Below, one piece after another: positions 971 to 58,614 of a DNA stretch of 64,000 nt. The translations under genes and the position numbers were made by a program. The stretch covers positions 94,255-158,254 of the forward strand of contig JAHFLF010000001.1 of assembly GCA_023255625.1 (NCBI GenBank), written 5' to 3'. The notes beneath the pieces are model-generated. The model was not told the DNA's origin and did no database searches. It was given only the letters and a program-made list of their open reading frames with translations. The stretch is from Candidatus Harrisonbacteria bacterium (GTDB lineage: Bacteria > Patescibacteriota > Minisyncoccia > UBA6257 > 1-14-0-10-44-23). The first letter of the stretch is position 1; each line of letters starts with the position of its first letter.

Positions 971-989
971 AGCTGCGCTCTCACGGGGA
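971..989. repeat. 19-nt direct copy of the 3' end (T-arm/acceptor) of the downstream tRNA-Glu gene
   Basis: gcgctctcacggggaatcg at 971-989 is identical to 1146-1164 inside the tRNA gene. The copy diverges after ...aatcg. Confidence 0.6.
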
Positions 990-1146
990 ATCGCCCGCGC
1001 CTCTTGTGCTCGTCAGCCACTCGCACAAGGTCTGGGCACCGCCTCCCTCGTTTTTCTTGCTAGAAAAACTCAGTCCGGCGATTCGATTCCCCTTTGAGAA
1101 AACAATAACACAAAAAGACTAGCAGATGCTAGTTTTTTTGTGTTAG

Positions 1147-1219
1147 CGCTCTCACGGGGAATCGAACCCCGATTTCGCCCGTGAGAGGGGCGCTTCCTAA
1201 GCCATTAGAAGATGAGAGC
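1147..1219 (-). tRNA. tRNA-Glu (anticodon CTC)
   Basis: Minus-strand read GCTCTCA TC TTCT AATGGCTT AGGA A CGCCC CTCTCAC GGGCG AAAT CGGGG TTCGATT CCCCG TGAGAGC G. Perfect 7-bp acceptor, T-loop TTCGATT, anticodon loop CTCTCAC with U33/A37. No encoded CCA. Confidence 0.8.
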
Positions 1220-1302
1220 AGTGGAAATATAATACATAATTTTTCACTCAAAGGCAACTTTTAATTGACAAAGGAATATATTAGGTTACATTCTTTTTCT
1301 GC

Positions 1303-1332
1303 TATGTTACAGCGTACTAGTACGCTGTAACA
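1303..1332. repeat. 30-bp perfect palindrome TGTTACAGCGTAC-TAG-TACGCTGTAACA, copy 1 of 2
   Basis: Perfect inverted repeat. An identical palindrome occurs at 14196-14232. It lies ~140 nt 3' of the murF stop. Confidence 0.7.
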
Positions 1333-1468
1333 ATAGATATATCTCAAGAGAAACGGATAGCGGCAAGCTGCTAGGCGGCCCTCTCGCAGGCCGAGGAGGC
1401 CGAGAGGAGTCGCTGCGCGAGCCGCGCGCAGATAGACGGGGCCGGTCTGCAGTTTACCGCTGTCCGTT

Positions 1469-2791
1469 TCATCGCCGCACCAAATCCTCCGGCCCGGCTC
1501 TGCGCAAAACCGCTACGGCCTTTTCCAAATGAATCCCGTGCGAGGCCTTTACCAGCACTAAATCACCTGGCTTGATGAGGGTGGGAAGCTGGCCAAGAAC
1601 CTCATCAACCGATTGCGCTAAAACAATATGTTTCTTGGCAATCTTTCCTTTTGCAGCCATCTCTCCGTATGCCGCAGCGGCGGGGCCAACGGCAATAACT
1701 ACATCAAAGACCTTTGCGGCAAGCTCCCCTATTTTTTTATGCGCAGCCGGTGAAAAACTGCCAAGCTCAAGCATGTCGCCGATAATAGCAACCTTGCGTT
1801 TTGCCTTTATAGATTGCACCGTTTCAATGGCAAGATTCATAGAAAGTGGCGAGGCATTGTAACTATCATCAATCAAAACTGAATCATTGATGCCGCGTAA
1901 AAATTGCATTCGCTGCGCTAGAGGTTTGTAATATAAAAGGGCTTGCGAGATATCCACGAGGTTCATGCTAAAGGCCAGCCCGACGCAGCCGGCGGCGGCG
2001 GCAGAATATGCCTGTGCGGCTCCGAGTGCGCCGTTAATCCGTACCGGCACAAACGCACCGTCGTAGCCCAGCTTAAAAGTAATGCCGATCGGTCGCAACT
2101 CACCATCACGCTCCTCAATCTTATTTTCAAAATCAATAATCCGAATATCGGCTTTCTCGGAAAACCCGTAGGTAAGAGCGGTAGCCCTGGTCTTGTGTTG
2201 CATTGCCAGCACTCGCTGTTCATCAGCATTTAAAATCACTAAGCCGCTGGCCGCCACGGCTTCAACAAGTTTAGATTTTTCTCTCGCCACCTGCTCCGGT
2301 GAATCATAAAATTGAACATGCACCGGCACATCGCCCACCGCTGTAACTACTGCAATATTTGGCTTAACTATGCCGGTCAAATAGGTCAGATCACCCGGCT
2401 TGTCTGCGCCATACTCCAAAACAAGAACCTCCGGATATAAGCCACGCCAACCGAACAACAAACGGAAAAAACTCACGAAGATAACGCGTGCAAAAAAACG
2501 AGCTTTTTGAAAATTGCTGGGCGGTACTGCCACATCTCTACCGATAACCCGCAGGTCTTTTGCCGTCCAGTCACCCAAAATTGTCAGAGCAACTCCGTAC
2601 TCGGCATTAAAATTTCCGACATTGCAACGAGCCCGCTTACGGGTCGCAACAACCGCAAAAATTTGCTCTTTTGTAGAAGTCTTGCCGACGCTACCGGTAA
2701 CGCCAACAACAACCGGTTTAAATTTCCGAATATGCCTGCTCGCTAGCCAGTTAATAATCCTAACCAGCTTATTGATAAGCCACTTTCGCAT
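1469..2791 (-). CDS. murF: UDP-N-acetylmuramoyl-tripeptide--D-alanyl-D-alanine ligase (Mur ligase family, MurF-like)
   Basis: VVGVTGSVGKTSTKE Mur-ligase P-loop. Sits in the dcw cluster downstream of ftsI. Confidence 0.75.
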   Translation of the reverse strand: MRKWLINKLVRIINWLASRHIRKFKPVVVGVTGSVGKTSTKEQIFAVVATRKRARCNVGNFNAEYGVALTILGDWTAKDLRVIGRDVAVPPSNFQKARFFARVIFVSFFRLLFGWRGLYPEVLVLEYGADKPGDLTYLTGIVKPNIAVVTAVGDVPVHVQFYDSPEQVAREKSKLVEAVAASGLVILNADEQRVLAMQHKTRATALTYGFSEKADIRIIDFENKIEERDGELRPIGITFKLGYDGAFVPVRINGALGAAQAYSAAAAGCVGLAFSMNLVDISQALLYYKPLAQRMQFLRGINDSVLIDDSYNASPLSMNLAIETVQSIKAKRKVAIIGDMLELGSFSPAAHKKIGELAAKVFDVVIAVGPAAAAYGEMAAKGKIAKKHIVLAQSVDEVLGQLPTLIKPGDLVLVKASHGIHLEKAVAVLRRAGPEDLVRR

Positions 2792-2851
2792 ATCTTCATC
2801 TTAAACGATGATGCTCAAAGCGCCAAATGCGTCGCGCCCGGACGCTTCTGG

Positions 2852-5854: not shown

Positions 5855-5860
5855 GCTGGT

Positions 5861-5945
5861 TAGTTAGTTGACTGGTTAGCTGGTTAGTTCGTCGTCTTGG
5901 GTAATCAGTTTTTACTAATTAACCAACTAACGAACTAACTAATTA
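5861..5945. repeat. TTAGTTAG/CTAACTAA-type intergenic inverted-repeat hairpin
   Basis: ctggttagttagttgactggttagctggttagttcg ... ctaattaaccaactaacgaactaactaattaactaa. Arms built from ggttagtt units. Same family recurs at 17981-18068, 27111-27150, 34880-34920, 53068-53165, 53830-53870. Confidence 0.6.
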
Positions 5946-5946
5946 A

Positions 5947-6381
5947 CTAAATCCCTAGTTCCCCCAACCGCTCCGCAATCTCACTCGGCGCAGATTCAAT
6001 CTTTGCTTTGTCTGCGTTCCACGCATCTTCGTCCCAGATCTCTAAGCGGCTATACACGCCGGCAATAACCGCCATTTTTTTGAGGCCTGCGTAGGTACGC
6101 AAAAACTCCGGCACAAGCACGCGACCCTGCGAATCAAGCTCAACCTCGCTTGCACCGGCCAGCATCAAACGCTGAAACGAACGCGCATTAGGATTTGTAA
6201 ACGGCATGGCTTTAATTTTCTGCGCCATTTGCTCCCACTCTGGTTGCGTGAAAACATACAAACACTTATCAAGACCACGCGTGATCACGGCATGCTGGCT
6301 CAAATCAGAACGAAACTTCGCCGGCACCGCCAGCCGTCCTTTGTCGTCTATAGAGTGTTTGTATTCGCCGATGAATGCCAT
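5947..6381 (-). CDS. mraZ: Transcriptional regulator MraZ
   Basis: MAFIGEYKHSIDDKGRLAVPAKFR..., duplicated MraZ fold. First gene of the dcw cluster. Confidence 0.85.
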   Translation of the reverse strand: MAFIGEYKHSIDDKGRLAVPAKFRSDLSQHAVITRGLDKCLYVFTQPEWEQMAQKIKAMPFTNPNARSFQRLMLAGASEVELDSQGRVLVPEFLRTYAGLKKMAVIAGVYSRLEIWDEDAWNADKAKIESAPSEIAERLGELGI

Positions 6382-7651: not shown

Positions 7652-8194
7652 TTACGAATTCTCAATCCAAAATCGCATTTTGCGCGGCGTACCCTCGCCG
7701 ACGTCAAGAACATTTTCAAGTTTACCACCGCAGGATTCAATAATTTTGCGTGACGGCTCATTTGTTTCGTCGCAGGTAAGCAGCACCCGCGTAATTCCAA
7801 GAGAACGAGCAATCGGAAGCGCCTGCTCTAAAAGTAATTTTCCATATCCTCTCCTGCGTGCCCATGGCACAACATCATAGCCAATGTGCCCGCCCGTGCT
7901 CGCTAATTTTTCACTCAGCACGTGGCGGATGCTTACCCGACCCGCATACTTACCGTCAACAATCAGCCAGCGAGTGGTTGCCGGAACATGCTCACCATCT
8001 TTCGTGCGCCACCCATTATCAAATCGGTCGTGAAGGTGTGTAGCAAAATCCCGCTCCACCTCTTCAAGGTTGACTTCTAGATACCGCCCTTCTTGCTGAA
8101 GCTCCCGAATACCAGCAATATAACTTTCCTTATACTGCTGCGATGGCGGAACCAGCTGAACTCCTTTTTCAAAATTTTCTAATGTTCCTGACAT
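7652..8194 (-). CDS. GNAT family N-acetyltransferase
   Basis: RRRGYGKLLLEQALPIARSLG acetyl-CoA binding motif A. Start placed at MSGTLENF (M22 of the track ORF); the longer N-extension is less likely. Confidence 0.65.
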   Translation of the reverse strand: MSGTLENFEKGVQLVPPSQQYKESYIAGIRELQQEGRYLEVNLEEVERDFATHLHDRFDNGWRTKDGEHVPATTRWLIVDGKYAGRVSIRHVLSEKLASTGGHIGYDVVPWARRRGYGKLLLEQALPIARSLGITRVLLTCDETNEPSRKIIESCGGKLENVLDVGEGTPRKMRFWIENS

Positions 8195-8263
8195 AGTGCG
8201 CGTTGCTGGGATCGGACCAGCGGCCTTTTCAACTTCGCCCCGTACCGTGATGGGCATACTTTG

Positions 8264-8335
8264 TGGGCACTACAGGGATTGAACCTGTGACCTTTCCAAT
8301 GTGAATGGAACGCTCTACCACTGAGCTAAGTGCCC
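8264..8335 (-). tRNA. tRNA-Val (anticodon CAC)
   Basis: Minus read GGGCACT TA GCTC AGTGGTA GAGC G TTCCA TTCACAT TGGAA AGGTC ACAGG TTCAATC CCTGT AGTGCCC A. Canonical cloverleaf, U33 and A37. Confidence 0.8.
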
Positions 8336-8436
8336 ATCTCTGGTACGGGGTGTGAACCCCAGTAGTAGAACCTACTGGTTCACTACGGGGCACGGTGAAA
8401 CGCTCTACCACTGAGCTAAAGACGCCCTTCTTCGCT
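8336..8436 (-). pseudogene. tRNA-like 5' fragment (GGCGTCTTTAGCTCAGTGGTAGAGCGTT...) plus conserved 34-nt hairpin; no matching 3' half
   Basis: The 5' half (acceptor GGCGTCT, D-arm identical to tRNA-Val) is followed by hairpin CCCCGTAGTGAACCAGTAGGTTCTACTACTGGGG (8357-8390). No complementary AGACGCC acceptor strand is present. Fragment gcgaag.agGGCGTCTTTAGC repeats again at 8531-8553. Confidence 0.35.
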
Positions 8437-8622
8437 TGGTTTGGTAACCAAGCTTCGCAAGGGCAAGCAACAATGAATATCACTGCTTGTCCCTCCGGAG
8501 CTTGAGTGCCAACGAGAGCGTAGGGGGAAGCTAAAGACGCCCTACTTCGCTAAACCCTACTGAAGCTTCGCAGGGCAAGCGTAGAACGAGTATAAACAAA
8601 AGAAACCCTTTATTCAAGCAAA

Positions 8623-14190: not shown

Positions 14191-14195
14191 GCCAT

Positions 14196-14232
14196 GTTAC
14201 AGCGTACTAGTACGCTGTAACATGGCAACTAG
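14196..14232. repeat. 30-bp perfect palindrome TGTTACAGCGTAC-TAG-TACGCTGTAACA, copy 2 of 2
   Basis: Identical to 1303-1332. ~80 nt 3' of the rpsP stop. Confidence 0.7.
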
Positions 14233-17972: not shown

Positions 17973-17980
17973 GAATCAGT

Positions 17981-18068
17981 TAGTTTGTTAGTTAGTCCAT
18001 AGTTAGTTAGCAAAAATCGGATACATCTATTGTACTAAGTAACTAACCAACTAACAACCAACTAACCA
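17981..18068. repeat. TTAGTTAG-type inverted-repeat hairpin between smc and Cys-rich gene A
   Basis: cagttagtttgttagttagtcc...ctaaccaactaacaaccaactaaccaa. Confidence 0.55.
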
Positions 18069-18072: not shown

Positions 18073-19803
18073 TCATGCCACCTCTTGCTGGTAACAGGGC
18101 TCACAGTAAACGATCTCGGGCTGTGTTGGCGCGTATGAAGTTTGAATAGGATCCTTGCACTTCTGGCACTCACGATCATAGACCTGGAGCTTGGTGCGCT
18201 GGCTAATGCGGGCAAAGTGGCGGCAGTTTGAGCAAAGCCTCGGGAGCGGCAGATTCATGCTGCGATAAAATGCGAGTTCATCAGGAAGTACGCGGAATGC
18301 AAGCGTACATTGGTCATTGCACGATCCGGCATGCTCGCAGCCAATAATATCTGCAGTAATAGCATCCGGAACGTCCTTAATATTATCCGGTAACTCACTC
18401 GCCGGCTTAGTCACTGTATAGTTGCGCTGTGCCGCATCGCGCCACGTAAAACCACTCGCTTGTGCCTGCTCTTTGGTAAGCGGAAAGTTCTCTTGTGCCA
18501 GCGTCTCGTTGTAGGCAAACGGCGAAAGCTCTGCCGGAAAATACTCGCCATATTTGTAAATCCTCCCCTGTGCATCTAGATATGGCATTGCATCCATCTG
18601 CGCCTTAATCTTTGCAACCAGCGCAACATACTCCTCTTTTGAATACTGCTTGTTTAAAATGCAGTACTCTTTTTTGCGGAGTCCAACGCAGCCAAATAAA
18701 TTTGATGAGGCCTGACACATATACGAATACTCAATGTCATGCACCTGCTCCTGCACGTTGTAGCAAAACTTGATGTTGTTGGTGCCGAGACCGCACGCAG
18801 TGCATTCATAAATCTGCTGGTTACCTGCTCCCCACGCAGTGTAGTCATAACAATCTTTGCTGGCGGGCGTCTCCTGTACATACTGACAGTAACGCAAATT
18901 CTCGCCTTCACGCACTAAAAATGAGTTGCGCACATTGCGAGAGTGGGAAATGTAATTGCCAGAAACATCGGTATTCTGCAGGCCATTAATATACTTATTG
19001 GGGAACTTCAGCCAGAACGCCCTCGCCTGCTCCCGCATAGCCTGCACGGCCGCATACGAACCAAGATTATATTCAGTAATCTTTTTCTCATACTCCTCCT
19101 TCGTATACTGCTCATTCCATATGCAGTAAGACTTTTTACGCAACCCGACGCAACCAAAACAGTTGCTTACGCCGACACAGTCTTTGGAAAATGCAATGTC
19201 GTACGAGCTCTCACATTGCGAAGAAAAAATCGCGTTGCGACACGAAGAAAGCCAAAATCCTTCATAGCATCGCTCAGACTTTTGAAGATGCGAATTATCA
19301 ACGCAATTCTTCACGCCGCCCAGCCCGTTGCCATACATGCAGTCCTCTGCGCCCTGGCCGTTGAAAGTTAAATAACAATTTTTTGGATCAGTAAAATTAT
19401 TCACATAATCACTATTCACGCCATTTACCACATTCAGATTTTTAAGCGGTACGCTGTGGAGCAATTCTTTGAACTGCTCAAAAAATGACTTTGCTTCATC
19501 AAAGTCGCGGCCATAGGTCATCGGGTCCCACAAATCAGAAAGCCAGACATCTTTTTCGTATACCTTCACGGACGAGTCGGGTGCAAAGGCAGAAAAAATA
19601 TCCTTGCCCGAATAATCACTCTTCCGTTTAAATAAAAATCGTTCATTACGAAACGCCATTCTGCGCTGTGCCCGACACAACCAACAAAACGTTGGCGGCG
19701 GCACCGAAACTTTTTTGTAAAATTCCAAATCAGCAGAATCAATAATGAAATCCTGTTTGCAGTTCTGGCAATTTCTAGTTTCCGAGGTTGTCATAGCTAC
19801 CAA
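18073..19803 (-). CDS. Cysteine-rich zinc-ribbon protein, paralog A (576 aa, unknown family)
   Basis: Many cysteines. N-terminal C-x2-C...C-x2-C (CQNCKQ...FCWLCR). Internal duplication FGCVGLRKKSYCIWNEQYTKEEYEKK / FGCVGLRKKEYCILNKQYSKEEYVAL. C-terminal CSNCRH...CQKCKD...YCEPCYQQEVA. Clearly homologous to 22898..24637. Confidence 0.65.
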   Translation of the reverse strand: MVAMTTSETRNCQNCKQDFIIDSADLEFYKKVSVPPPTFCWLCRAQRRMAFRNERFLFKRKSDYSGKDIFSAFAPDSSVKVYEKDVWLSDLWDPMTYGRDFDEAKSFFEQFKELLHSVPLKNLNVVNGVNSDYVNNFTDPKNCYLTFNGQGAEDCMYGNGLGGVKNCVDNSHLQKSERCYEGFWLSSCRNAIFSSQCESSYDIAFSKDCVGVSNCFGCVGLRKKSYCIWNEQYTKEEYEKKITEYNLGSYAAVQAMREQARAFWLKFPNKYINGLQNTDVSGNYISHSRNVRNSFLVREGENLRYCQYVQETPASKDCYDYTAWGAGNQQIYECTACGLGTNNIKFCYNVQEQVHDIEYSYMCQASSNLFGCVGLRKKEYCILNKQYSKEEYVALVAKIKAQMDAMPYLDAQGRIYKYGEYFPAELSPFAYNETLAQENFPLTKEQAQASGFTWRDAAQRNYTVTKPASELPDNIKDVPDAITADIIGCEHAGSCNDQCTLAFRVLPDELAFYRSMNLPLPRLCSNCRHFARISQRTKLQVYDRECQKCKDPIQTSYAPTQPEIVYCEPCYQQEVA

Positions 19804-27110: not shown

Positions 27111-27150
27111 ACTAGTTAATCGGTTAGTCAGTTAGTTGGTTAGTTAGTTT
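27111..27150. repeat. TTAGTTAG-type repeat cluster
   Basis: ctagttaatcggttagtcagttagttggttagttagttt. Confidence 0.5.
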
Positions 27151-38417: not shown

Positions 38418-38510
38418 TTTGCTTTTTAGAGGGACTCTCGGAGCGCGACGGCGCGAGAGCGAGGGCAATTTTTCAGCAGAAAAATATGCCTGTGCCCTCT
38501 AAAAAGCAAA
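38418..38510. repeat. Hairpin-core element copy 1: conserved ~60-nt core inside a 17-bp palindrome, at the gyrA 3' end
   Basis: ttgctttttagagggac [ctctcggagcgcgacggcgcgagagcgagggcaatttttcagcagaaaaatatgcct] gtgccctctaaaaagcaa. Core shared with copies at 46073-46195, 51268-51370, 61125-61245. Confidence 0.7.
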
Positions 38511-44241: not shown

Positions 44242-44326
44242 GCTCTCGTGGCGGAACTGGCATACGCGCGTGGCTTAGGACCACGTCCCGCAAGGGTTAG
44301 AGGTTCAAATCCTCTCGAGAGCACCA
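44242..44326 (+). tRNA. tRNA-Leu (anticodon TAG), CCA encoded
   Basis: GCTCTCG TG GCG GAACTGGCATA CGC G CGTGG CTTAGGA CCACG + long variable arm CCCGCAAGGGTT + AGAGG TTCAAAT CCTCT CGAGAGC A CCA. Confidence 0.85.
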
Positions 44327-44352: not shown

Positions 44353-44402
44353 AATTCCCAATACCATAAATCTACCATGGTAGATTTATGGTATTGGGAA
44401 TT
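44353..44402. promoter_or_regulatory. 50-bp perfect palindrome centred on CCATGG (site 1)
   Basis: aattcccaataccataaatctaccatggtagatttatggtattgggaatt. Shares core ataccata..tctaccatggtaga..tatggtat with 45056-45087. Confidence 0.55.
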
Positions 44403-44430: not shown

Positions 44431-45045
44431 CTAAATCTTAACCTGGAGATTCTTGCCTGGAAATCGCAGTGTGCCAGATTTCGTTATTTCAAAAATATCA
44501 ACATACTGAGTTAAATTGGCTTCGGCGAGATCATCAATAAAACTCTCCGGTATCTGTCGTTTACCGATAAAAAGACTTCGCTGCAAAAATCGAAAACCAA
44601 ACTGACCAAGAGCACCCCTCAACCAATCGCGCTGTTGCCGCATCGTATGTGGAATATCATACGCAATAATAGTGACGCGATCGCTGGGCGTAGCAACATA
44701 TTTTTTTGCGCGTACGATATCAGAAAGATCATTTTCATGCTCATGGACCCAAGTTTTCCCTGCCTGCGTCATACTATAATGAGCTTCACGACCAATTCTG
44801 GTACTCTTAATAAGTCCGTCTTGCTTTAATGCTTGAATCAACCGTTGCGCGCGTTTCCATTCAAGTCGTTTTTGATGCTCATCAAAATGCTTCTTGTCAT
44901 ACTGCTGGCGAACCTGTTGCGCCGCCGCAAAACCCGCCCGAATCCCCCTCTGACGACCAAAGCCGCCACCAATCAAAAAGGATGCTATCTCTGCACTGGT
45001 ACGACCGACATCTGACAAAAAATATAAAATCTGTTTTCTCTTCAT
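44431..45045 (-). CDS. winged-HTH + Cas2-like (VapD/PaaX-C-like) domain protein, putative regulator (204 aa)
   Basis: C-terminal ...VTIIAYDIPHTMRQQRDWLRGALGQFGFRFLQRSLFIGK... resembles the Cas2/PaaX_C ferredoxin-like fold pattern (YD....RR..LR..L...G.R.Q.S.F). Assignment is tentative. Confidence 0.4.
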   Translation of the reverse strand: MKRKQILYFLSDVGRTSAEIASFLIGGGFGRQRGIRAGFAAAQQVRQQYDKKHFDEHQKRLEWKRAQRLIQALKQDGLIKSTRIGREAHYSMTQAGKTWVHEHENDLSDIVRAKKYVATPSDRVTIIAYDIPHTMRQQRDWLRGALGQFGFRFLQRSLFIGKRQIPESFIDDLAEANLTQYVDIFEITKSGTLRFPGKNLQVKI

Positions 45046-45055
45046 GCGTACATAA

Positions 45056-45087
45056 TACCATATTTCTACCATGGTAGAAATATGGTA
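45056..45087. promoter_or_regulatory. 32-bp perfect palindrome centred on CCATGG (site 2), ~11 nt upstream of the start of the 44431..45045 gene
   Basis: taccatatttctaccatggtagaaatatggta. The aa..tt versus tt..aa swaps relative to site 1 preserve dyad symmetry. Confidence 0.55.
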
Positions 45088-45127: not shown

Positions 45128-46048
45128 TTACCTCCTGCGACCATGAAACGCTTTGTGTACTTCGCCAAGCTGCTTGTTAGTCAGGTGCGTATAAATCTGC
45201 GTTGTGGCAATGTTGCTGTGGCCAAGCATTTCCTGAACCGAGCGTAAATCGGCCCCGTTAACCAACAGGTCTGTTGCGAAGAGATGGCGCAGTTTGTGCG
45301 GTGTTATGTGTTCTGCAATACCGGCTTTGCGCGCATAAAAATTGACCAGCTGTTGCACGGAGCGCGGAGAGATCACGCCAAGCACCCTCGGTGGTTTTTT
45401 CGATTTTAAAGATGGCTTACTCAACCCAACAAACAGCCACTCCTGCGCGTCGCCACGCTTGTCTAAATACCGCTTCAAAATCTCGCGACAGCTGTCTGAT
45501 AAAAACACTACGCGTAACTTCTCTCCTTTCCCGCGCACGGTAAACTCACCGCGGCTAAAATCAATATACCGCTTTAATCCGCAAAGTTCGGAGACACGCA
45601 GCCCGGTTGAAAACAAGGTTTCTAAAATGGCGCGATCGCGGAGCGCGCGCAAGCCATCCCCCTCTGGTGCAGCAAGGAGCCGCTCGAAGTCGCGATACTC
45701 CGGTATCTGAATCTGGCGCTGGGCAATTTTTGGCAGCTCAATTTTATCGGCTGCAAGCACATCATAATCGTGTTTGGCCAGATACTTTAAAAAACTGCGA
45801 ATCGCAATAACATAATAGTTCTGCGTGATTTTCTTCAGCATCGCGCCATCCCGTCCGGGCGTACGTGCAAGCGTGATGCGGAATTCACGAACCACCGACT
45901 CGGTAATCTGACTTGGCTTACTAATTTTTTGCTGGCGAAAAAACGAACTCAAATAATGTTCATAATTAACCCTCGTCTTCGGCGAGCGATTCTTTTCAAT
46001 CTCTAAATAATCCAAATACTGCTTGAGAAGGTCATCAATTTGAGCCAT
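45128..46048 (-). CDS. Tyrosine site-specific recombinase, XerC/XerD-like
   Basis: N-terminal SAM-like domain, catalytic R...HKLRH...LGHSNIATTQIYTH. Start at MAQIDDLLKQY. Confidence 0.8.
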   Translation of the reverse strand: MAQIDDLLKQYLDYLEIEKNRSPKTRVNYEHYLSSFFRQQKISKPSQITESVVREFRITLARTPGRDGAMLKKITQNYYVIAIRSFLKYLAKHDYDVLAADKIELPKIAQRQIQIPEYRDFERLLAAPEGDGLRALRDRAILETLFSTGLRVSELCGLKRYIDFSRGEFTVRGKGEKLRVVFLSDSCREILKRYLDKRGDAQEWLFVGLSKPSLKSKKPPRVLGVISPRSVQQLVNFYARKAGIAEHITPHKLRHLFATDLLVNGADLRSVQEMLGHSNIATTQIYTHLTNKQLGEVHKAFHGRRR

Positions 46049-46072
46049 CCTGTAAGTATAAACTAGATGTTT

Positions 46073-46195
46073 CGTAAAACATATTCGGGTCAGCGCTAGC
46101 GGCAATTCTCGGACCGCGACGGCGGGAGAGTATAGACCGATTTTTCACCAGAAAAATACGGACGGTGCCGTCTGCGCTGACCCGAATATGTTTTA
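46073..46195. repeat. Hairpin-core element copy 2 (inside a 20-bp perfect palindrome)
   Basis: gtaaaacatattcgggtcagcgc [tagcggcaattctcggaccgcgacggcgggagagtatagaccgatttttcaccagaaaaatacggacggtgccgtct] gcgctgacccgaatatgttttac. Confidence 0.7.
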
Positions 46196-50204: not shown

Positions 50205-50460
50205 ATAACATGGGGATAGGGATTAGAGGTTGCTAGATGCTGCTAGAGGTTGATAGGTAAACTTAGAGGAAACTAGCTTGGCGCGGCCCGAGTACGGGCC
50301 GCGGCGGTTTCGTTCTAACCCGAACCCCTTGCTAGCATCCTCTAGCAGCATCTAGCACCCTCTAGCAGCCTCTAGCAGCCTCTAGCAGCCTCTAGCAGCC
50401 TCTAGCAGCCTCTAGCAGCCTCTAGCAGCATCTAGCAGCATCTAGCCCCGTTGACTTTAT
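50205..50460. repeat. Tandem array: ~13 direct copies of 10-bp unit CTCTAGCAGC (50338-50455), mirrored by 3-4 inverted copies (50212-50245) across a GC hairpin (50281-50306)
   Basis: ...ctctagcagcatctagcaccctctagcagcctctagcagcctctagcagc...; upstream gctagatgctgctagaggttg; centre gcggcccgagtacgggccgc. In the divergent region between gpmI and the 50525 gene. Confidence 0.8.
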
Positions 50461-50524
50461 AGGCGAAAAAGAATAATTTAACGCTTGAGAGGCGTACTCT
50501 CAAGGGAATGGAAAGGAGCCACCA

Positions 50525-51267: not shown

Positions 51268-51370
51268 CGGAACAGCCGGGATTTTTATTCCTGGGGACTC
51301 TCACAGGCCGACGGGCCGAGAGCGAGGGTGAATTTTCTCCAGAAAATTACACCTGTGCCCCAGGAATAAA
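51268..51370. repeat. Hairpin-core element copy 3 (inside a ~20-bp palindrome)
   Basis: ccgggatttttattcctggggac [tctcacaggccgacgggccgagagcgagggtgaattttctccagaaaattacacct] gtgccccaggaataaaaatcccgg. Confidence 0.7.
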
Positions 51371-51527: not shown

Positions 51528-53066
51528 ATGGAATTTCTGACCAACCCCTTTGTCTGGGTATTTTTAGTCTTATTTTTAGTCTTCGGTATCGCGGCCGGTT
51601 ACTACTTCCGCCACTCGCGCGGAGCTAAGAACGCCGGATCAGTCGAGCAGCAAACACAAGCCAAACTCGCCGAAGCGCAAAAGCAGGCCGAGCATTTTGT
51701 CGCTGACGCAAAATTAAAAGCCGCCGAGCAAATCAGCGAGGGGCAAAAACAAGAACGCGAACGGAAACAAAAATTAGACCAGCTTGAAGAGCGACTTTTA
51801 AAACGCGAAGAGTCTTTGCAGGCGCAACTGCTAAATCTGACTACCAGAGAGACGAAGTTCAACGAAGAAATTAAAAAGGTAGAACAGGTCAAAGAGCAGG
51901 CCGAGCTCGCCTACGCTAAGGCAACTGCTCACCTCGAGCAGATTACCGGCATGAAGCAGGAGGATGCCAAGGCCATGATCATTAAGGATGTTACCGAGAA
52001 GTACAAGGGCGATCTGGTTACCAGTATCCAAAAAGTTGAACACGAGCGACGCGACGAGATTGAAAAGAAGGCCTCGGAGATTATTACCACCGCGCTGATG
52101 CGTTATGCACGCAGCCAAGTCGCCGATGTTACTACCAGTGTCTTCCATCTGCCGAGCGAGGACATCAAGGGTAAAATTATCGGCCGTGAAGGGCGCAATA
52201 TTAAAGCACTGGAGCGAGCAACCGGAGTGGAAATTGTCATTGACGAAGCGCCGGAATCAATCATCCTCTCTTCTTTTGATCCGCTGCGCCGTGAAATCGC
52301 CCGCATGACGCTCGAGCGGATGATTAAAGACGGCCGCATCCAGCCGGCGCGCATCGAAGAAACTGTCGAACAATGTAAAACTGAACTCATCCGCCGCATG
52401 CAGGAAATTGGTGAACAGGCCACGCTCGAGGTCGGCATCGCCGGCTTTCCGAAAGAAATTCTGCAGCTGCTCGGCCGGCTACACTTCCGCACTAGCTACG
52501 GACAAAATGTGCTGATGCACTCTTTGGAGATGGCGCACATCGCCGGTATGATTGCCCGCGAACTCGGCTGCAATGTTGATATTGCCAAAAAAGGTGCGCT
52601 CGTCCACGACATCGGCAAGGCCATCAGTCATGAAGTCGAGGGTACGCATGTGGAACTTGGCCGGAAAATTCTGGCGAAATACGGCGTGGAGCAAGCGGTA
52701 ATCACCGCAATGGAAAGCCACCACGAGGACTACCCGTTTACCAGCCCGGAGGCCTACATTGTTACGGCGGCCGATATTCTTTCTGCAGCCCGCCCTGGCG
52801 CTCGCCGAGATACCGTCGAACAGTACATAAAACGGCTGAAAGACCTGGAGGAGATCACCAGCAAGTTTGCGGGCGTGAAACAGGCCTACGCTCTTTCTGC
52901 CGGCCGTGAGGTGCGCGTCTTTGTTGTACCGGAAAAAATTGACGACTTTGCCGCACTGCAAATGGCCCGCGATATTGCCAGCCGTATCCAAACCGAGATG
53001 AAGTATCCGGGTGAGATTAAAGTAAATGTTATCCGCGAGACCCGGGCGGTGGAATACGCGCGATAG
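51528..53066 (+). CDS. rny: Ribonuclease Y
   Basis: N-terminal TM, coiled-coil, KH domain (...KGKIIGREGRNIKALE...), HD domain (...HSLEMAHIAGMIA...HDIGK...). Confidence 0.92.
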   Translation: MEFLTNPFVWVFLVLFLVFGIAAGYYFRHSRGAKNAGSVEQQTQAKLAEAQKQAEHFVADAKLKAAEQISEGQKQERERKQKLDQLEERLLKREESLQAQLLNLTTRETKFNEEIKKVEQVKEQAELAYAKATAHLEQITGMKQEDAKAMIIKDVTEKYKGDLVTSIQKVEHERRDEIEKKASEIITTALMRYARSQVADVTTSVFHLPSEDIKGKIIGREGRNIKALERATGVEIVIDEAPESIILSSFDPLRREIARMTLERMIKDGRIQPARIEETVEQCKTELIRRMQEIGEQATLEVGIAGFPKEILQLLGRLHFRTSYGQNVLMHSLEMAHIAGMIARELGCNVDIAKKGALVHDIGKAISHEVEGTHVELGRKILAKYGVEQAVITAMESHHEDYPFTSPEAYIVTAADILSAARPGARRDTVEQYIKRLKDLEEITSKFAGVKQAYALSAGREVRVFVVPEKIDDFAALQMARDIASRIQTEMKYPGEIKVNVIRETRAVEYAR

Positions 53067-53067
53067 G

Positions 53068-53165
53068 AATTTAGTTAGTTGGTTAATTAGTTAGCTGGTT
53101 AGTTGGTAGAAACGAAATTCCAGTCTCGCTAACTAACAAACTAACTAGCTAACCAACTAACCAAT
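53068..53165. repeat. TTAGTTAG-type inverted-repeat hairpin downstream of rny
   Basis: tagttagttggttaattagttagctggttagttgg ... cgctaactaacaaactaactagctaaccaactaacc. Confidence 0.55.
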
Positions 53166-53829: not shown

Positions 53830-53918
53830 TCAGTTAGTTAGTTGACGGTTAGTCGGTTAGTTAGTAAGCACCGGCAAACCTTGCAGTTGAGGATATATCT
53901 GGTAGAATAATCTGCATT

Positions 53919-53989
53919 GCGGAGTTCGTATAGTGGTAATACACCTCGTTGCCAACGAGGAGCGACGGGTTCGATTCCCGTACTTCGCT
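53919..53989 (+). tRNA. tRNA-Gly (anticodon GCC)
   Basis: GCGGAGT TC GTAT AGTGGTA ATAC A CCTCG TTGCCAA CGAGG AGCG ACGGG TTCGATT CCCGT ACTTCGC T. Confidence 0.8.
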
Positions 53990-54082
53990 CACTTCTTCGC
54001 CCTTGGTAGGGCTACGAAGTGCAAGCACTTCAGAAAAATAGTGTTTGTACTTCAAATAATATAACTACAACAGCGAAGAGAA

Positions 54083-54328
54083 GTGTCCTTCGAAGCTTTA
54101 TGCGAAGAAGGACGAATGGTAAACCCTCTTTTGCTTATTGGTTCTACTCCTGATATCAAAACAAGATTAGCGTCACACAACTCCGGAGCCAACAAGCATA
54201 CGAGTAAATTCAGGCCGTGGAAAATTGTATGGGTATGCGGATTTTTGAGCAAAGAAAAAGCATTTTCATTTGAGATGTATCTAAAAACCGCATCGGGAAT
54301 AGCATTCCGTAGAAAACGCCTTCTTTAA
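54083..54328 (+). CDS. GIY-YIG nuclease family protein (UPF0213-like, 81 aa)
   Basis: ...LLLIGSTPDIKTRLASHNSGANKHTSKFRPWKIVWV...FEMYLKTASGIAFRRKRL. Second GIY-YIG in the window, ~90 nt after tRNA-Gly. Confidence 0.55.
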   Translation: MSFEALCEEGRMVNPLLLIGSTPDIKTRLASHNSGANKHTSKFRPWKIVWVCGFLSKEKAFSFEMYLKTASGIAFRRKRLL

Positions 54329-54414
54329 AAAACACAGTCCCCAACACGACCATGTCGCGTCAGGGACTAGGCTGGGGCGGCTGGGGCGCCCCGAGGATCG
54401 AGAGCTGCTAGCTG

Positions 54415-56809: not shown

Positions 56810-56816
56810 TAAATAT

Positions 56817-57668
56817 ATGGAGAACGCCCCAGTTTCCCAAACCGTAATTCCCCGCCCAAATCTGCCCGGCCCGATCGCTCTGCTTAAACAAGCATGGTCT
56901 GTGTTTGGCAAAAATTTCTGGCTATTTCTGACAATTATATCCGCGCCAACCATACTCGCCGCCGTTGTCGCCGTTATGCGCGCTAAAGCACTCCCGCAGC
57001 CACTCACCACAACGCCTGGCGGACTCATCCTGGAAATAGTTAATTTTCTAGTATCGATTTTAGCTGGCGGCGCAATCATTACCGCCGGACTAAAATTAGC
57101 AGCCGGAGAAACTACCTCCGCAGACCAGGCATATCGCCGTGTCTTTAATTTATTTTTCCCGTTCCTGTGGCTGAATATCCTGATGCTCCTTATCATCTGG
57201 GGCGGCACAACTCTGCTGATTATCCCGGGCATCATACTCTCGCTCTGTTTTTTCTTCACTGGCTTTATCTTTTTCAGCGGAACCGCTAAAGGAATAGACG
57301 CCCTGCTACTTAGCAAGGATTACGCCAAAGGTTATACAGCTACAATCTTCGGCCGTTTGTTAGTGGTCGGATTAATACTCATGATTCCGCTTCTCTTAGT
57401 AACTATCCCCTTCGGCGGAACGAACACGGTGGTCGGCACTTTAATCATCACCATAGTTAGCGGCGTAATGCTACAACCGCTGATAGTGCTTTATTCTCTG
57501 GAAATTTTCAAAAAAATCCAGCAGATAAAAGGAGTTCTGCAGCCGCAGTCATCTAAAAAAGCAAAGCGAACTATGTATGCGTTAGCGGTACTTGGCCTGC
57601 TAAGCGGTATTGGGCTGACCATCCTCTTTCTCAAGCTCCTTGCTGCCGTACCAGTTCAGATGCATTAA
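56817..57668 (+). CDS. hypothetical polytopic membrane protein (283 aa)
   Basis: Six or more TM helices. Confidence 0.45.
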   Translation: MENAPVSQTVIPRPNLPGPIALLKQAWSVFGKNFWLFLTIISAPTILAAVVAVMRAKALPQPLTTTPGGLILEIVNFLVSILAGGAIITAGLKLAAGETTSADQAYRRVFNLFFPFLWLNILMLLIIWGGTTLLIIPGIILSLCFFFTGFIFFSGTAKGIDALLLSKDYAKGYTATIFGRLLVVGLILMIPLLLVTIPFGGTNTVVGTLIITIVSGVMLQPLIVLYSLEIFKKIQQIKGVLQPQSSKKAKRTMYALAVLGLLSGIGLTILFLKLLAAVPVQMH

Positions 57669-57718
57669 AATACATAGCCCCCTAACGGCTATTTGGCAGT
57701 AATGTCCATGCTCTAGGC

Positions 57719-58438
57719 ATGCTATCATATCAATATACATATCTCATCGGGGATTTTTTAATATTTTTTCCGGTCTGGTTACTGCTGCTTGTCCATAGAA
57801 AGGATTTGTGGAAAATAATTTTCTTGGCTGGCCTTGTTTTCGGCCTCGTTTCTTTTCTCGCAGAACCTCTTTTTTTGAGAGATTACTGGCATCCCGGCTA
57901 TCTCAAACCGCTTTTTGTTGGAGGATATCAAATCGGATCACTTGAAGATTTTTTGTATGGATTTTTAAAAGGCGGAATAGCGAGCGTCATCTACGAAGAG
58001 ATCTTCGGTAAATTTCTCGCAAAACGAAAAAATAGAAAGCATCACTGGGTTTGGTTTTTGGCACCATTTTATATGGGAGGCGTGGCACTCTTTATCGTGC
58101 CCATCTACCTCTTGAACCTTAACTCGCTATACGCGGCGCTGCTCGCATCACTCTTTTGTTTTAGTTTTTATGTATGGCTCCGCAAAGACCTACTGTTTGA
58201 TTCTCTCATGAGCGGGATTCTAGTCGGCGCCCTATCCATTGTAGGCCTCTGGATACTTACTCTCATATTTCCTGAAATGTTCCACTTGTACTGGAAATTA
58301 CACAATTTAAGCGGCATATTCGTCGCCGGAGTACCCGTTGAGGAGCTATTGGAATCCTTCGCGGTTGGCATGATCGGCGGTCCATTCTATGAATTTTTCA
58401 TGGGGAGACGATTCCTAAAAACACAAAAAAACGGCTAA
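57719..58438 (+). CDS. polytopic membrane protein, possibly lycopene-cyclase-domain family
   Basis: Repeated TM bundles with a PxEE-type motif (VAGVPVEELLESF). Weak assignment. Confidence 0.35.
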   Translation: MLSYQYTYLIGDFLIFFPVWLLLLVHRKDLWKIIFLAGLVFGLVSFLAEPLFLRDYWHPGYLKPLFVGGYQIGSLEDFLYGFLKGGIASVIYEEIFGKFLAKRKNRKHHWVWFLAPFYMGGVALFIVPIYLLNLNSLYAALLASLFCFSFYVWLRKDLLFDSLMSGILVGALSIVGLWILTLIFPEMFHLYWKLHNLSGIFVAGVPVEELLESFAVGMIGGPFYEFFMGRRFLKTQKNG

Positions 58439-58456
58439 GCCGTTTTTTTGTGTTTG

Positions 58457-58529
58457 TGCTCTCGCTAGGAATCGAACCTAGATTTGCCACTTCGCAGGCG
58501 GCTGTCCTATCCATTGAACGACAAGAGCA
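58457..58529 (-). tRNA. tRNA-Arg (anticodon GCG)
   Basis: Minus read GCTCTTG TC GTTC AATGGAT A GGAC A GCCGC CTGCGAA GTGGC AAAT CTAGG TTCGATT CCTAG CGAGAGC A. One G-U in the acceptor stem and one in the anticodon stem. Confidence 0.65.
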
Positions 58530-58597
58530 TACTATTTAATTATCCACTCCGACGCTCGTTACTACGAGGTCGGAGAGCCGGCTTACTGCGTCGGCTT

Positions 58598-58614
58598 TGA
58601 ACGACAAGAGCATT
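58598..58614. repeat. 17-nt direct copy of the tRNA-Arg 5' end
   Basis: ttgaacgacaagagcat at 58598-58614 equals 58514-58530 (minus-strand ATGCTCTTGTCGTTCAA). The copy sits 67 nt upstream of the gene on the tRNA strand. Confidence 0.6.

Follow-up and report, generated by a model that had tools for sequence, protein, structure and literature searches.

Elements that integrate at tRNA genes by means of an integrase leave attL/attR identity blocks that rebuild the end of the tRNA, with sublocations in the T loop and the anticodon loop. At a protein gene, e14 and phage 21, which are kilobase-size prophages with an integrase, integrate at the 3' end of E. coli icd. Another class comprises MITEs, REP-like palindromic elements and Rickettsia palindromic elements: short non-coding sequences that form hairpins, exist in many copies with a sporadic distribution, and sometimes lie inside genes. 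These small elements are not known to restore a severed gene end by a 12-26-nt copy or by a whole gene. Experiments in mycobacteriophages have demonstrated the tRNA-dependent lysogeny of actinobacteriophages (Guerrero-Bustamante and Hatfull, 2024; PMC10865867), and a tRNA gene of Caldiarchaeum subterraneum is disrupted by a 1.8-kb recombinase-bearing element (Sugahara et al., 2012; PMC3293823).

Here we describe repeated tRNA gene ends in a 64,000-nucleotide stretch of Candidatus Harrisonbacteria DNA (the window); the analysis covered about 90 kb of the genome from which it comes. With one tandem array set aside, the window holds four exact direct repeats that are 15 nt or longer with their copies within 400 nt, and each of them is at a tRNA gene: a 19-mer at tRNA-Glu (GCGCTCTCACGGGGAATCG; 975-993 and 1146-1164), a 21-mer (8309-8329 and 8399-8419) and an additional 15-mer (8414-8428 and 8529-8543) at tRNA-Val, and a 17-mer at tRNA-Arg (TTGAACGACAAGAGCAT; 58514-58530 and 58597-58613). 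In 200 dinucleotide-preserving shuffles the mean was 0.03 such repeats and the maximum 1; chance is excluded as the origin of the local exact repeats at tRNA genes. Independent assemblies of this organism have the repeats too (Val in L001 and L002, Glu in L117 and L004, Arg in L116), which are therefore not assembly artefacts, and a search of the tRNA-Leu and tRNA-Gly genes of the window returned no end copies. A sequence-only reading had already placed a 19-nt copy of the tRNA-Glu 3' end at 971-989, a second tRNA-Val fragment copy at 8531-8553 and a 17-nt copy of the tRNA-Arg 5' end at 58598-58614; all are real, with the Glu and Arg copies now at 975-993 and 58597-58613 and the Val copy found as a 15-mer at 8529-8543. 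As at classical att sites, each identity block begins in a tRNA loop and has its other end within 0-2 nt of the end of the gene, and repeat boundaries lie equally close (0-2 nt) to the functional gene boundary at the protein-gene loci described below. The loop-to-end direct repeat, the intact tRNA and the empty sites in relatives all resemble integrase-mediated integration. However, the inserts here are 66-164 nt long, non-coding and devoid of integrase or cargo, and the repeats at tRNA-Arg and tRNA-Val are of 5' ends.

At tRNA-Glu the repeat encloses a 152-nt insert.
1146-1219, minus strand: intact tRNA-Glu(CTC) (ARAGORN; Rfam tRNA model, 54 bits).
1106-1145, minus strand: terminator hairpin directly after tRNA-Glu, the first part of the insert (arm pairing).
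994-1104, minus strand: structured module F1, consisting of a left arm, two hairpins and conserved junction strands (homology to the tRNA-Ser module; RNAalifold).
975-993, minus strand: 19-nt copy of the tRNA-Glu 3' end (exact repeat; pairing).

The arms of the terminator-like hairpin are 19 nt long and 95% complementary, and a terminator hairpin directly follows tRNA-Arg and tRNA-Ser as well. F1 is a conserved three-way junction of about 110 nt closed by the 19-nt copy. This copy begins at C56 of the T loop and ends 1 nt beyond the discriminator; it supplies the 3' strand of the closing helix and is complementary to the left arm at 1084-1098. A homologous module lies 3' of tRNA-Ser in the same genome (L116, 6114-6248), its closing helix rewritten to fit tRNA-Ser; both identity blocks begin at C56 and measure exactly 19 nt, and the two inserts are collinear across their entire length of about 150 nt. 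From the two copies RNAalifold predicts 37 pairs, eight of them compensatory; the stems covary, and the junction strands and a 14-nt loop (GAGUGRCUGACGAG) are conserved. The z-score of fold stability is -8.1, and F1 has no terminal inverted repeats. A covariance model matched the Glu and Ser copies only among the compared loci, an Rfam search matched no family, and the module is absent behind the tRNA-Glu of L104, which is identical to that of the window, and from the other loci compared. In L058 the same architecture follows tRNA-Glu with a different sequence, and two successive degenerate 3'-end copies lie behind the gene.

At tRNA-Arg it is the 5' end that is repeated.
58456-58528, minus strand: intact tRNA-Arg(GCG) (ARAGORN).
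58531-58596, minus strand: putative 66-nt insert with two GC-rich hairpins (sequence and fold).
58597-58613, minus strand: copy of the tRNA-Arg 5' end, comprising 2 nt upstream and nt 1-15 and ending in the D loop (exact repeat; also in L116).

A -10-like box, TGGATAATT, can be read by eye in the putative insert beside tRNA-Arg, and a consensus scan of this insert found no promoter.

The tRNA-Val locus is a tRNA gene nested in a dead one.
8589-8617, minus strand: sigma-70-like promoter TTGAAT-17-TATACT, the sole one of the locus (promoter scan; conserved in L109, L110 and L105).
8529-8582, minus strand: displaced tRNA-Val nt 1-12 (8529-8540) and a partial duplicate, about 40 nt, of the right half of F3.
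8426-8528, minus strand: imperfect palindrome F3, GGGACAAGC...GCTTGCCC (L109 comparison; fold).
8396-8425, minus strand: 5' half of the disrupted outer tRNA-Val, with the acceptor 5' strand, D arm and anticodon-stem 5' strand (aligned to intact orthologues).
8232-8395, minus strand: 164-nt cassette in place of the outer anticodon loop (sequence reading and repeat analysis).
8263-8335, minus strand: intact inner tRNA-Val(CAC), acceptor stem GGGCACT (ARAGORN; Rfam, 72.8 bits).
8197-8231, minus strand: 3' half of the outer tRNA-Val, with the anticodon-stem 3' strand, variable loop, T arm and acceptor 3' strand.

The outer fragments complement each other as the halves of a single gene, orthologous to the intact gene of L005: the 5' half can be aligned with intact orthologues in L005, L104, L105 and L109, the T arm of the 3' half (GCTGG-TCCGATC-CCAGC) is identical in the L005 tRNA-Val, and the halves joined by a synthetic TTCACAT loop give a valid cloverleaf. 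The outer acceptor 3' strand carries a C5:C68 mismatch, and the 3' half overlaps the called start of a GNAT ORF (7652-8257). Since this half is found a short way downstream of the intact gene, the intact tRNA-Val occupies the old anticodon-loop site; its isotype is that of the dead outer tRNA. Within the cassette the inner gene is bracketed by the inverted repeat CCCCGTACC / GGTACGGGG (8342-8350 and 8238-8246) and an F2 hairpin lies at 8357-8391, while F3 is inserted after nt 12-13 of the outer gene. Thus the 5' fragment, previously taken for an att scar, is half of a tRNA-Val gene that a cassette bearing an intact tRNA-Val has split at the anticodon loop. The earlier reading had overlooked the 3' half downstream of the intact gene. 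Fragments belonging to a valid intron-containing tRNA were also considered and rejected, as a tRNA finder with introns enabled made no such call in the window.

The event is also seen at the ends of two protein genes and is therefore not tRNA-specific.
22824-22921, minus strand: 3' end of a 579-aa gene (ORF 22898-24637) duplicated around an insert (repeat and F2 comparison; fold).
28079-28186, plus strand: 5' end of dnaE duplicated around an insert (repeat and motif comparison).

The final 24 nt of the 579-aa gene (CYQQEVA*) are repeated at 22824-22847, and the 50-nt insert contains an F2 hairpin at 22848-22883; a paralogue ending at 18073 has no insert. In dnaE the displaced first 26 nt (28079-28104) are followed by a 56-nt insert with CACGGTACGGGGC, and the functional start is at 28161. 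The end copies of the 579-aa gene differ at five positions, all third-position or stop-to-stop, and those of dnaE by synonymous changes only (Ser TCC versus AGT, Val GTA versus GTT). Purely synonymous differences in both genes suggest that the replacement ends were imported rather than copied on the spot. An element-supplied gene end with mostly synonymous changes and a displaced original end downstream recalls e14 and phage 21 at icd, although the inserts here measure only 50-56 nt. The two copies of the F2 hairpin are 92% identical and include a G-C/C-G swap, and all four occurrences of the CCCCGTAC motif in the window fall within the three F2 inserts (Val, dnaE and the 579-aa gene). The intervening DNA, rightly described before as hairpin-rich, thus falls into repeated families, F1 and F2.

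Empty and filled sites were compared among relatives at tRNA-Val and tRNA-Glu. L005, L104, L105 and L107 have tRNA-Val orthologues without the 5' insert, those of L005, L104 and L107 being of simple form; L110 keeps the ancestral 5' end, with no insert there. At the F3 site L109 has a homologous palindrome in the same position, and L104, L105 and L005 are empty. tRNA-Glu lacks the 3' insert in L104, where the next gene starts after 12 nt, and in L005. The repeats therefore mark insertions and are not conserved promoter or processing elements, since relatives carry the same tRNA genes without them. In L105 a 17-nt 3' copy of tRNA-Val lies behind a 127-nt insert, and L110 and L109 encode the same RplL protein, yet their tRNA-Val states differ. 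Nesting at tRNA-Val recurs in L110 and L006 with inserts unrelated in sequence to those of the window; L110 has 30-nt terminal inverted repeats, its D loop contains a perfect palindrome of 20 nt, and its inserts have the 10-mer CCTGCCTGCC in common with those of L006. The nested Val cassettes are flanked by inverted rather than direct repeats, with 3-7 nt of target missing.

On balance, these loci are probably explained by miniature non-coding insertions that are site-specific and restore each gene that they break into. The tRNA-end repeats would be the junction repeats of small (about 50-400 nt), hairpin-rich non-coding insertions, entering in the D, anticodon or T loop of tRNA genes or in the first or last 25 nt or so of the two protein genes. 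The inserts would be site-specific mobile elements, miniature and non-autonomous, or minimal remains of such elements, moved by an enzyme encoded elsewhere, most simply a tyrosine-recombinase-type integrase acting on the gene-end identity block. Several observations count against this explanation. No integrase, transposase or reverse transcriptase was found beside the inserts of the three tRNA loci, and no transposase, RT, TnpB or Cas1 among 47 scanned ORFs; the sole tyrosine recombinase of the window (45128-46105), Xer-like in appearance, lies 13 kb away from the closest of the affected tRNA genes; and phage and plasmid sequences, including viral collections, gave no counterpart of the inserts. 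The inverted repeats and target loss at the nested cassettes are not what simple integrase recombination produces, and the F1 left arm, complementary to the tRNA copy and differing between Glu and Ser, is explained by neither an att-site nor a target-duplication model. Of the proposal made from the sequence that these are integration scars or hairpin elements, the insertions, att-like blocks and hairpin families stand; an integrase or phage counterpart is missing and the Val fragment is no att scar.

A rather unlikely alternative is that the inserts are relics of full-size prophages or integrative elements that used tyrosine integrases. The repeats at Glu, Ser and Arg would then be attL/attR, and the nested tRNA-Val would be the remnant of a prophage that destroyed the tRNA-Val of its host and brought its own, as in tRNA-dependent lysogeny; genome reduction would have deleted the rest, sparing the tRNA, by then essential, and a few bases beside it. 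Identity blocks reaching the gene end from the T or D loop, the shared isotype of the inner and dead outer tRNAs, and the double degenerate copies of L058, as after serial integrations, are in keeping with this. So are the mycobacteriophages, in which the host tRNA gene is likewise disrupted and not rebuilt (PMC10865867), and Caldiarchaeum, in which a 5' tRNA fragment split off by the 1.8-kb element lies upstream of a functional gene at a locus heterogeneous within the population (PMC3293823). However, the tRNA-Val locus has no prophage or integrase, only about 90 nt of flanking DNA, and its replacement tRNA lies precisely where the dead gene had its anticodon loop and would depend on that gene's promoter; Caldiarchaeum is archaeal, with a recombinase gene in the element and introns excised by the archaeal splicing system. 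Moreover, two prophages decaying independently would leave different pieces rather than collinear Glu and Ser inserts, covariation of the F1 stems indicates selection on structure, one F2 hairpin occurs at three different targets, and neither the inserts and their surroundings nor viral collections yielded an integrase or phage gene remnant or a match.

MITE-like transposons making 12-26 bp target-site duplications, of which only those spanning a gene end would be viable in essential genes and hence seen, are an unlikely alternative. The perfect identity of the tRNA repeats, their length of 19 nt at both F1 copies, the terminal inverted repeats of L110 and the 10-mer it shares with L006 would fit. 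In L104 a perfect 25-nt repeat flanks an intergenic 75-nt insert, which a target-site duplication fits better than a carried gene end. IS1634-type elements of Mollicutes, with their long and variable target duplications, count in the same direction. Against this, the nested cassettes have small target deletions and no duplications, the protein-gene end copies differ at several synonymous sites including the TCC/AGT serine switch, the repeats halt 0-2 nt from the gene boundary without overshoot, F1 lacks terminal inverted repeats, and no transposase or RAYT was seen in the window; the resemblance to such elements and to Rickettsia palindromic elements lies in size, hairpins, copy number, sporadic spread and location in genes.

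Distinctly unlikely is that F1, at least, is a functional RNA co-transcribed with or placed after the tRNA, its closing helix mimicking the acceptor/T-arm, for example so as to make use of tRNA processing enzymes or to base-pair with that tRNA. Its conserved strands and loop, covarying stems, very stable fold and the shared architecture of L058 agree with such a role, but the module is cut off from the tRNA by a strong terminator, only two copies are known, F1 is missing behind the identical L104 tRNA-Glu and at other compared loci, no Rfam family matches, and the Arg, Val and protein-gene cases are left unexplained. Finally, replication or repair errors at hairpin-prone tRNA genes (template switching, snap-back synthesis, filler DNA at breaks) would account for breakpoints in cloverleaf loops and for combined direct and inverted neighbour copies (the Glu left arm, the inverted unit upstream of Val, the L110 D-loop palindrome), but are very improbable given homologous inserts at different genes (F1, F2), F3 at the same site in the distant lineages of the window and L109, and conserved cores that do not derive from the local sequence.

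According to the reading that we favour, that of gene-restoring miniature insertions, each insertion would be compensated by resupplying the severed gene part beside the insert. tRNA-Glu and tRNA-Ser would each regain 19 nt of 3' end, tRNA-Arg 15-17 nt of 5' end and the outer tRNA-Val 12-13 nt, while the cut in the anticodon loop would be made good by a whole tRNA-Val; the displaced original piece would persist as a dead fragment. Unlike the products of integrase integration, the F1 copy pairs with a complementary arm that is tailored to it, and the nested cassettes have inverted repeats and small deletions. The promoter at 8589-8617 is the ancestral tRNA-Val promoter; the nested tRNA-Val would be transcribed from it, and RNase P would release the tRNA from a structured leader of about 250 nt. 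Because the lost part would be resupplied in every case, the interrupted gene would stay functional.

An exhaustive search of the window for exact direct repeats spaced within 400 nt returned four top repeats, once one tandem array at 50.3 kb is set aside, and all four lie at tRNA genes. ARAGORN finds five such genes in the window.

tRNA genes (ARAGORN) and top exact direct repeats in the window
1146-1219, minus strand, tRNA-Glu(CTC)
8263-8335, minus strand, tRNA-Val(CAC)
44242-44326, plus strand, tRNA-Leu
53919-53990, plus strand, tRNA-Gly
58456-58528, minus strand, tRNA-Arg(GCG)
8309 and 8399, exact direct repeat of 21 nt, Val D arm
975 and 1146, exact direct repeat of 19 nt, Glu 3' end
58514 and 58597, exact direct repeat of 17 nt, Arg 5' end
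8414 and 8529, exact direct repeat of 15 nt, upstream of Val

Dinucleotide-preserving shuffles give an expectation of 0.03 repeats of at least 15 nt against the four observed, which rules out a chance origin, and an assembly artefact is ruled out by the identical structures in the ENA, Logan and NCBI-derived assemblies. The short copies of tRNA ends that the sequence-only reading had reported at tRNA-Glu, tRNA-Val and tRNA-Arg are confirmed, with positions shifted by a few bases. The analysis extended over about 90 kb of the source genome. Local imperfect repeats show no general excess in Saccharibacteria relative to other bacteria and are more numerous in high-GC control loci, so this statistic is uninformative. 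Several other repeats are intergenic or tandem. The array set aside repeats a 10-nt unit, CTAGCAGCCT, about 15 times (50312-50466), and near 54400 there is a related short run, gctgctagctgctagg. An 8-nt unit, (GTTAGTTN)n, frequently accompanied by the inverted array (NAACTAAC)n, forms arrays at intergenic positions 5859-5947, 17979-18055, 27107-27156, 53066-53161 and 53848-53865; similar periodic GTAAAC/GTAGAC runs follow rplL in the comparison loci L104, L109 and L110. A 67-nt GC-rich motif (38431-38497 and 51294-51360, 79% identical) lies on the 5' side of two solute-binding-protein genes and forms a hairpin with compensatory changes (GCGCGACGGCGCG versus GGCCGACGGGCC), a similar hairpin being present at 1383-1410.

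The minus-strand gene order is rplJ-rplL-(346 aa)-tRNA-Val-GNAT-...-mraZ-rsmH-ftsL-PBP-murE-tRNA-Glu-(245 aa), and at its tRNA-Val position an intact gene sits inside a dead one. Upstream of the intact gene stands the complete 5' half of an outer tRNA-Val (GCGTCTT-TA-GCTC-AGTGGTA-GAGC-G-TTTCA, minus strand, 8425 to 8396), and downstream of it the complete 3' half (TGAAA-AGGCC-GCTGG-TCCGATC-CCAGC-AACGCGC-A, 8231 to 8197). Both halves match the uninterrupted tRNA-Val(CAC) of L005, L104, L105 and L109, and linking them through a synthetic anticodon loop gives a normal cloverleaf fold with a single acceptor-stem C:C mismatch. The 7-nt anticodon loop of the outer gene has been exchanged for 164 nt (8395 to 8232), a cassette consisting of a hairpin, the intact inner tRNA-Val and a 9-bp inverted repeat (CCCCGTACC / GGTACGGGG) that brackets the inner gene. 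The acceptor stem and T arm of the inner gene are unlike those of the outer one, and the 7 nt at the two cassette junctions differ (CCGTGCC versus GCGAAGT), leaving no common core. The 21-nt repeat, previously taken for a duplicated D arm, is real, but because an intact tRNA-Val lies within a split one it represents the D arm conserved between two homologous genes, of which one is dead and the other alive.

With introns allowed, ARAGORN does not call the outer tRNA-Val of the window or of L110, whether or not the inner gene is deleted, and the usable anticodon is gone. This search and the replacement of the 7-nt loop speak against an intron-containing tRNA in the window; the tRNA finder confirms the intact genes and does not call the window fragments as parts of an intron-containing tRNA. 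Rfam intron families at their gathering thresholds detect no group I intron core in the window. The sole sigma-70-like promoter of the locus (8617-8589) lies upstream of all Val parts and represents the ancestral promoter of tRNA-Val, which L109, L110 and L105 have in conserved form; the inner gene is probably transcribed from it and released from a leader of about 250 nt. The listed start of the GNAT open reading frame, 8257, crosses the dead outer 3' half, and the in-frame ATG at 8194 is more likely to be the true start.

Six related loci were obtained through RsmH and RplL; RsmH scans of metagenomes and genomes yielded few close relatives, and RplL yielded the useful ones. The nearest genome record, L005, is an uncultured Candidatus Saccharibacteria MAG with an RsmH 71% identical to that of the window.

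State of the tRNA-Val gene in the window and related loci
L005, L104, L107: simple; -10 box, 7-9 nt, tRNA
L105: 127-nt insert, then a 17-nt copy of the tRNA-Val 3' end (from A58 of the T loop)
L109: promoter, tRNA nt 1-13, 105-nt imperfect palindrome, intact gene
Window: the L109 arrangement plus an extra partial copy, of about 40 nt, of that palindrome
L110: nested; the D loop holds a 20-nt perfect palindrome, the anticodon stem a cassette of about 400 nt
L006: nested; distant lineage, RsmH 46% identical

The state of this gene varies between closely related genomes: L109 and L110 encode exactly identical RplL proteins, yet their Val loci differ. The L109 palindrome is homologous to window 8426-8528 and occupies the identical site, and empty, attB-like Val sites are found in L005, L104, L105 and L107. 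Both the palindrome CCTGCCTGCCGGCAGGCAGG and a cassette bearing terminal inverted repeats of 30 nt interrupt the ancestral tRNA-Val of L110. Within the cassette is an intact tRNA-Val whose acceptor shows a compensatory pair change; three target nucleotides are missing. In L006 the outer gene forms a perfect cloverleaf whose anticodon loop is split by a cassette bearing an intact tRNA-Val, and the right end of the cassette, CGGCAGGCAGG, matches the L110 palindrome. When the inner gene of L006 is deleted ARAGORN formally calls the outer one as tRNA-Ala(CGC) with a 55-nt intron, a call that lacks the G3:U70 alanine identity pair. A tRNA of matching isotype inside the anticodon arm of the resident gene is therefore seen in three lineages (window, L110 and L006), with a different insert sequence each time.

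At tRNA-Glu the insert lies behind the gene. L104 has a tRNA-Glu and promoter identical to those of the window, lacks the insert and has the ATG of the next gene 12 nt downstream; L005 likewise lacks the insert. In the window 152 nt, comprising a terminator hairpin (1106-1145) and a structured region, separate tRNA-Glu from the 19-nt copy, which spans T-loop C56 to one base past the discriminator. Alignment of the orthologous Val and Glu loci, proposed as a check in the sequence-only reading, revealed relatives with empty sites and rules out conserved promoter or leader elements. Just past the right end of the window, in the same genome (L116 5990-6248), tRNA-Ser(GCT) has the corresponding arrangement behind it: first a terminator, next a structured region homologous to the Glu one and finally its own 3' end repeated exactly over 19 nt, likewise from C56 to +1. 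This makes tRNA-Ser the fourth affected tRNA in the source genome. The Glu and Ser modules, here termed F1 (994-1104 in the window), can be aligned over their entire length. Their conserved parts are ATCGAATCGCCGGA, GAGGCGGTGCCCAGACCTT, CGAGTGRCTGACGAG and AGAGKCGCGGG, and their variable parts are two internal hairpin stems in which the changes are compensatory. The tRNA copy pairs with a complementary left arm to make the outer helix, which is Glu- or Ser-specific. RNAalifold predicts a three-way junction of 37 pairs, 8 of them compensatory, and F1 has no terminal inverted repeats.

No known RNA family was found for F1: a permissive cmscan against Rfam of window 900-1600 and L116 5950-6320 gave only tRNA and chance-level matches. 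A hammerhead reading of the CUGACGAG loop was dismissed by eye because the GAAA box and matching stems are absent. Searched with a covariance model, neither 24 CPR-type loci nor 80 viral loci yielded further F1 copies. Behind its tRNA-Glu(CTC), the distant CPR-like locus L058 shows a like architecture with another sequence, two successive 3'-end copies and a fold with a closing helix of the F1 type. Two other palindromic features lie near tRNA-Glu: an identical 28-nt perfect palindrome, TGTTACAGCGTACTAGTACGCTGTAACA, occurs in two intergenic regions (1305-1332 and 14195-14222), the former just upstream of the tRNA-Glu promoter, and a GC-rich long hairpin of about 120 nt (1350-1470; 32-nt arms, 78% complementary) separates the murE stop from tRNA-Glu.

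At tRNA-Arg it is the 5' end that is repeated. The 17-mer comprises 2 nt upstream of the gene plus nt 1-15, ending in the D loop, and its copy lies 66 nt upstream. The spacer contains two GC-rich hairpins and a -10-like box adjoining the tRNA, with spacing, as read by eye, like that of other tRNAs of this genome; a consensus scan of the spacer found no promoter. No 3' remainder of tRNA-Arg lies downstream of the gene. Neither neighbouring gene (a lycopene-cyclase-domain protein and an aspartyl protease) led to an orthologous locus, their homologues being at most 66% identical and in other contexts. A two-gene cassette encoding a DUF5678-like small protein and the retropepsin-like aspartyl protease adjoins tRNA-Arg (58749-59390) and is also present directly after tRNA-Lys in another CPR lineage (L111 and L112, 2151-2920); it may be a small tRNA-associated mobile cassette.

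Protein genes are affected in a similar manner. The hairpin of the Val cassette (8357-8391) belongs to a family, F2, with a second copy at 22848-22883 (92% identical, with a G-C/C-G swap in the stem), situated between the stop codon of a 579-aa open reading frame (22898-24637) and a second, displaced copy of that gene's final 24 nt (region 22824-22921). All five differences between the two end copies are third-codon or stop-to-stop changes, and the end of a 576-aa paralogue (18073-18096), which has no insert, places differences on both copies. The paralogous blocks themselves, located at about 18.0-19.8 kb and 22.8-24.6 kb, share roughly 70-80% identity and lack Pfam matches. The first 26 nt of dnaE (28161-28186) are likewise repeated at 28079-28104, where the displaced start adjoins the ancestral upstream region, homologous to that of L107. 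The two dnaE copies differ in a Ser codon (TCC versus AGT) and a Val codon (GTA versus GTT), and the upstream pseudo-start opens a 29-codon uORF whose end overlaps the real ATG. The 56-nt dnaE insert holds CACGGTACGGGGC, a 13-mer also found at the right flank of the inner tRNA-Val, and the 8-mer CCCCGTAC is present at four places in the window, each of them inside one of three inserts (Val, 579-aa gene, dnaE), a count of four reached in 0 of 100 shuffles.

Collectively, the repeats mark insertions, with empty sites in relatives for Val and Glu and a putative case at Arg; they sit in loops of the cloverleaf or no more than about 25 nt from the end of a gene, and the inserts fall into sequence families of conserved structure. 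The interrupted genes survive intact, since the severed part exists in two copies or, in the anticodon loop, a whole gene is supplied. The inserts are probably miniature, non-autonomous, site-specific elements. Those at the tRNA genes of the window measure 66-164 nt and contain no open reading frame and no integrase gene. The only tyrosine recombinase in the window (45128-46105), an Xer-like protein with a SAM_1 domain encoded beside RmuC and near tRNA-Leu, adjoins no insert. A perfect loopless palindrome of 50 nt (44353-44402; 25-nt arms) lies 27 nt after tRNA-Leu and is followed by a PaaX-like regulator (44431-45072) and this recombinase. About 125 nt after tRNA-Gly is a small GIY-YIG nuclease open reading frame (54116-54328; Pfam E = 3.5e-12) that lacks the N-terminal part of the domain and is possibly frameshifted; two hairpins with CTTCGC/GCGAAG motifs precede it on the tRNA-Gly side. 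To the left of the window in the same genome, L117 (16375-19038) carries a DnaB helicase gene with an intein and a LAGLIDADG endonuclease domain, identified by Pfam hits.

Among the nearest known systems are the icd insertions of e14 and phage 21, as well as MITE/REP-like elements of bacteria. MITEs have terminal inverted repeats; here L110 has such repeats of 30 nt, the window cassette has a 9-bp inverted repeat and F1 has none. They also generate target-site duplications of fixed length; both F1 copies have 19 nt, the other repeats are 12-13, 15-17, 17, 24, 25 and 26 nt, and the nested cassettes are accompanied by deletions of 3-7 nt instead. Finally, MITEs have a related autonomous transposase element, and a Pfam scan of 47 window open reading frames revealed no transposase, reverse transcriptase, TnpB or Cas1. 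With integrase elements at tRNA genes the present inserts share a direct repeat running from a tRNA loop to the gene end (Glu and Ser, 19 nt, C56 to +1; Arg, -2 to nt 15) and empty sites in relatives (for Val L005, L104, L105 and L107; for Glu L104 and L005). However, those elements encode their integrase internally, beside the att site, and have a free form with a matching attP. The search for the intervening sequences on phages, also suggested by the sequence-only reading, gave no specific counterpart: no phage or plasmid attP and no phage-borne inner tRNA was recovered from IMG/VR or GenBank phages beyond chance-level 15-17-mers and generic tRNA similarity.

In tRNA-dependent lysogeny a phage destroys a host tRNA gene and carries a tRNA of matching isotype (PMC10865867), and the window, L110 and L006 share with it a host tRNA that is split and not rebuilt, together with an intact tRNA of the same isotype. 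However, that system involves an integrase-bearing prophage and a short core shared by the two junctions; the window Val locus has neither, and no phage genes are found at it. In Caldiarchaeum a recombinase element splits tRNA-Thr (PMC3293823). The logic of compensated insertion is common to these known systems, and the earlier reading of the repeats as integration scars or hairpin-element remnants holds in so far as they flank insertions absent from relatives, but the hallmarks of an integrase, a prophage or a transposase are missing. Distinctive are the miniature size, the tRNA-in-tRNA nesting, the tRNA-matched closing helix and the use of protein gene ends. No description of such insertions was found in the literature on Saccharibacteria or other CPR bacteria.

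How the replacement end arises can be read in two ways, each favoured by some of the evidence. It may be carried by the element, as at an att site, which is consistent with the synonymous differences at dnaE and the 579-aa gene, with an inner tRNA-Val unlike the outer one and with repeats that halt at the gene boundary. Alternatively, it may be a duplication of the target, as suggested by the perfect identity of the tRNA repeats, by the constant 19 nt at both F1 copies and by an insert upstream of rplJ in L104 (9069-9193), where a perfect 25-nt direct repeat surrounds 75 nt of hairpin-containing intergenic sequence at a site that is not a gene end. The main observation that neither model explains is that the sequence of the F1 left arm follows the tRNA, being complementary to the respective tRNA copy. 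It is conceivable, though we consider it rather improbable, that Saccharibacteria carry an undescribed class of 'self-compensating' miniature mobile elements, with a tRNA-in-tRNA cassette type and an F1 type that is rewritten under the guidance or templating of a tRNA. According to this proposal the cassette type would enter the anticodon loop of its cognate tRNA gene and replace that gene, and in the F1 type, a structured module of roughly 110 nt, the two strands of the closing helix would be rewritten to suit the tRNA behind which it lands. Such rewriting would suggest a mechanism in which the tRNA itself acts as template or guide, for instance tRNA-primed copying, as at a retroviral primer-binding site, or RNA-guided targeting of the T loop, either of which would differ from a classical att site.

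These insertions create traps for annotation, as illustrated by the GNAT start that runs through a dead tRNA half, by the pseudo-start before dnaE and by dead tRNA halves that can be mistaken for split or intron-containing tRNAs. They also provide a compact natural example of 'harmless' gene targeting, and if the tRNA-matched helix of F1 is written by a templated mechanism it would represent a new way to program target specificity. The tRNA-in-tRNA arrangement, found in three lineages, is a bacterial path to tRNA gene replacement that parallels tRNA-dependent lysogeny of phages and models for archaeal split tRNA genes. In the genome of this ultra-small symbiont, essential single-copy genes have repeatedly been struck by insertions, and those that persist bring their own repair.
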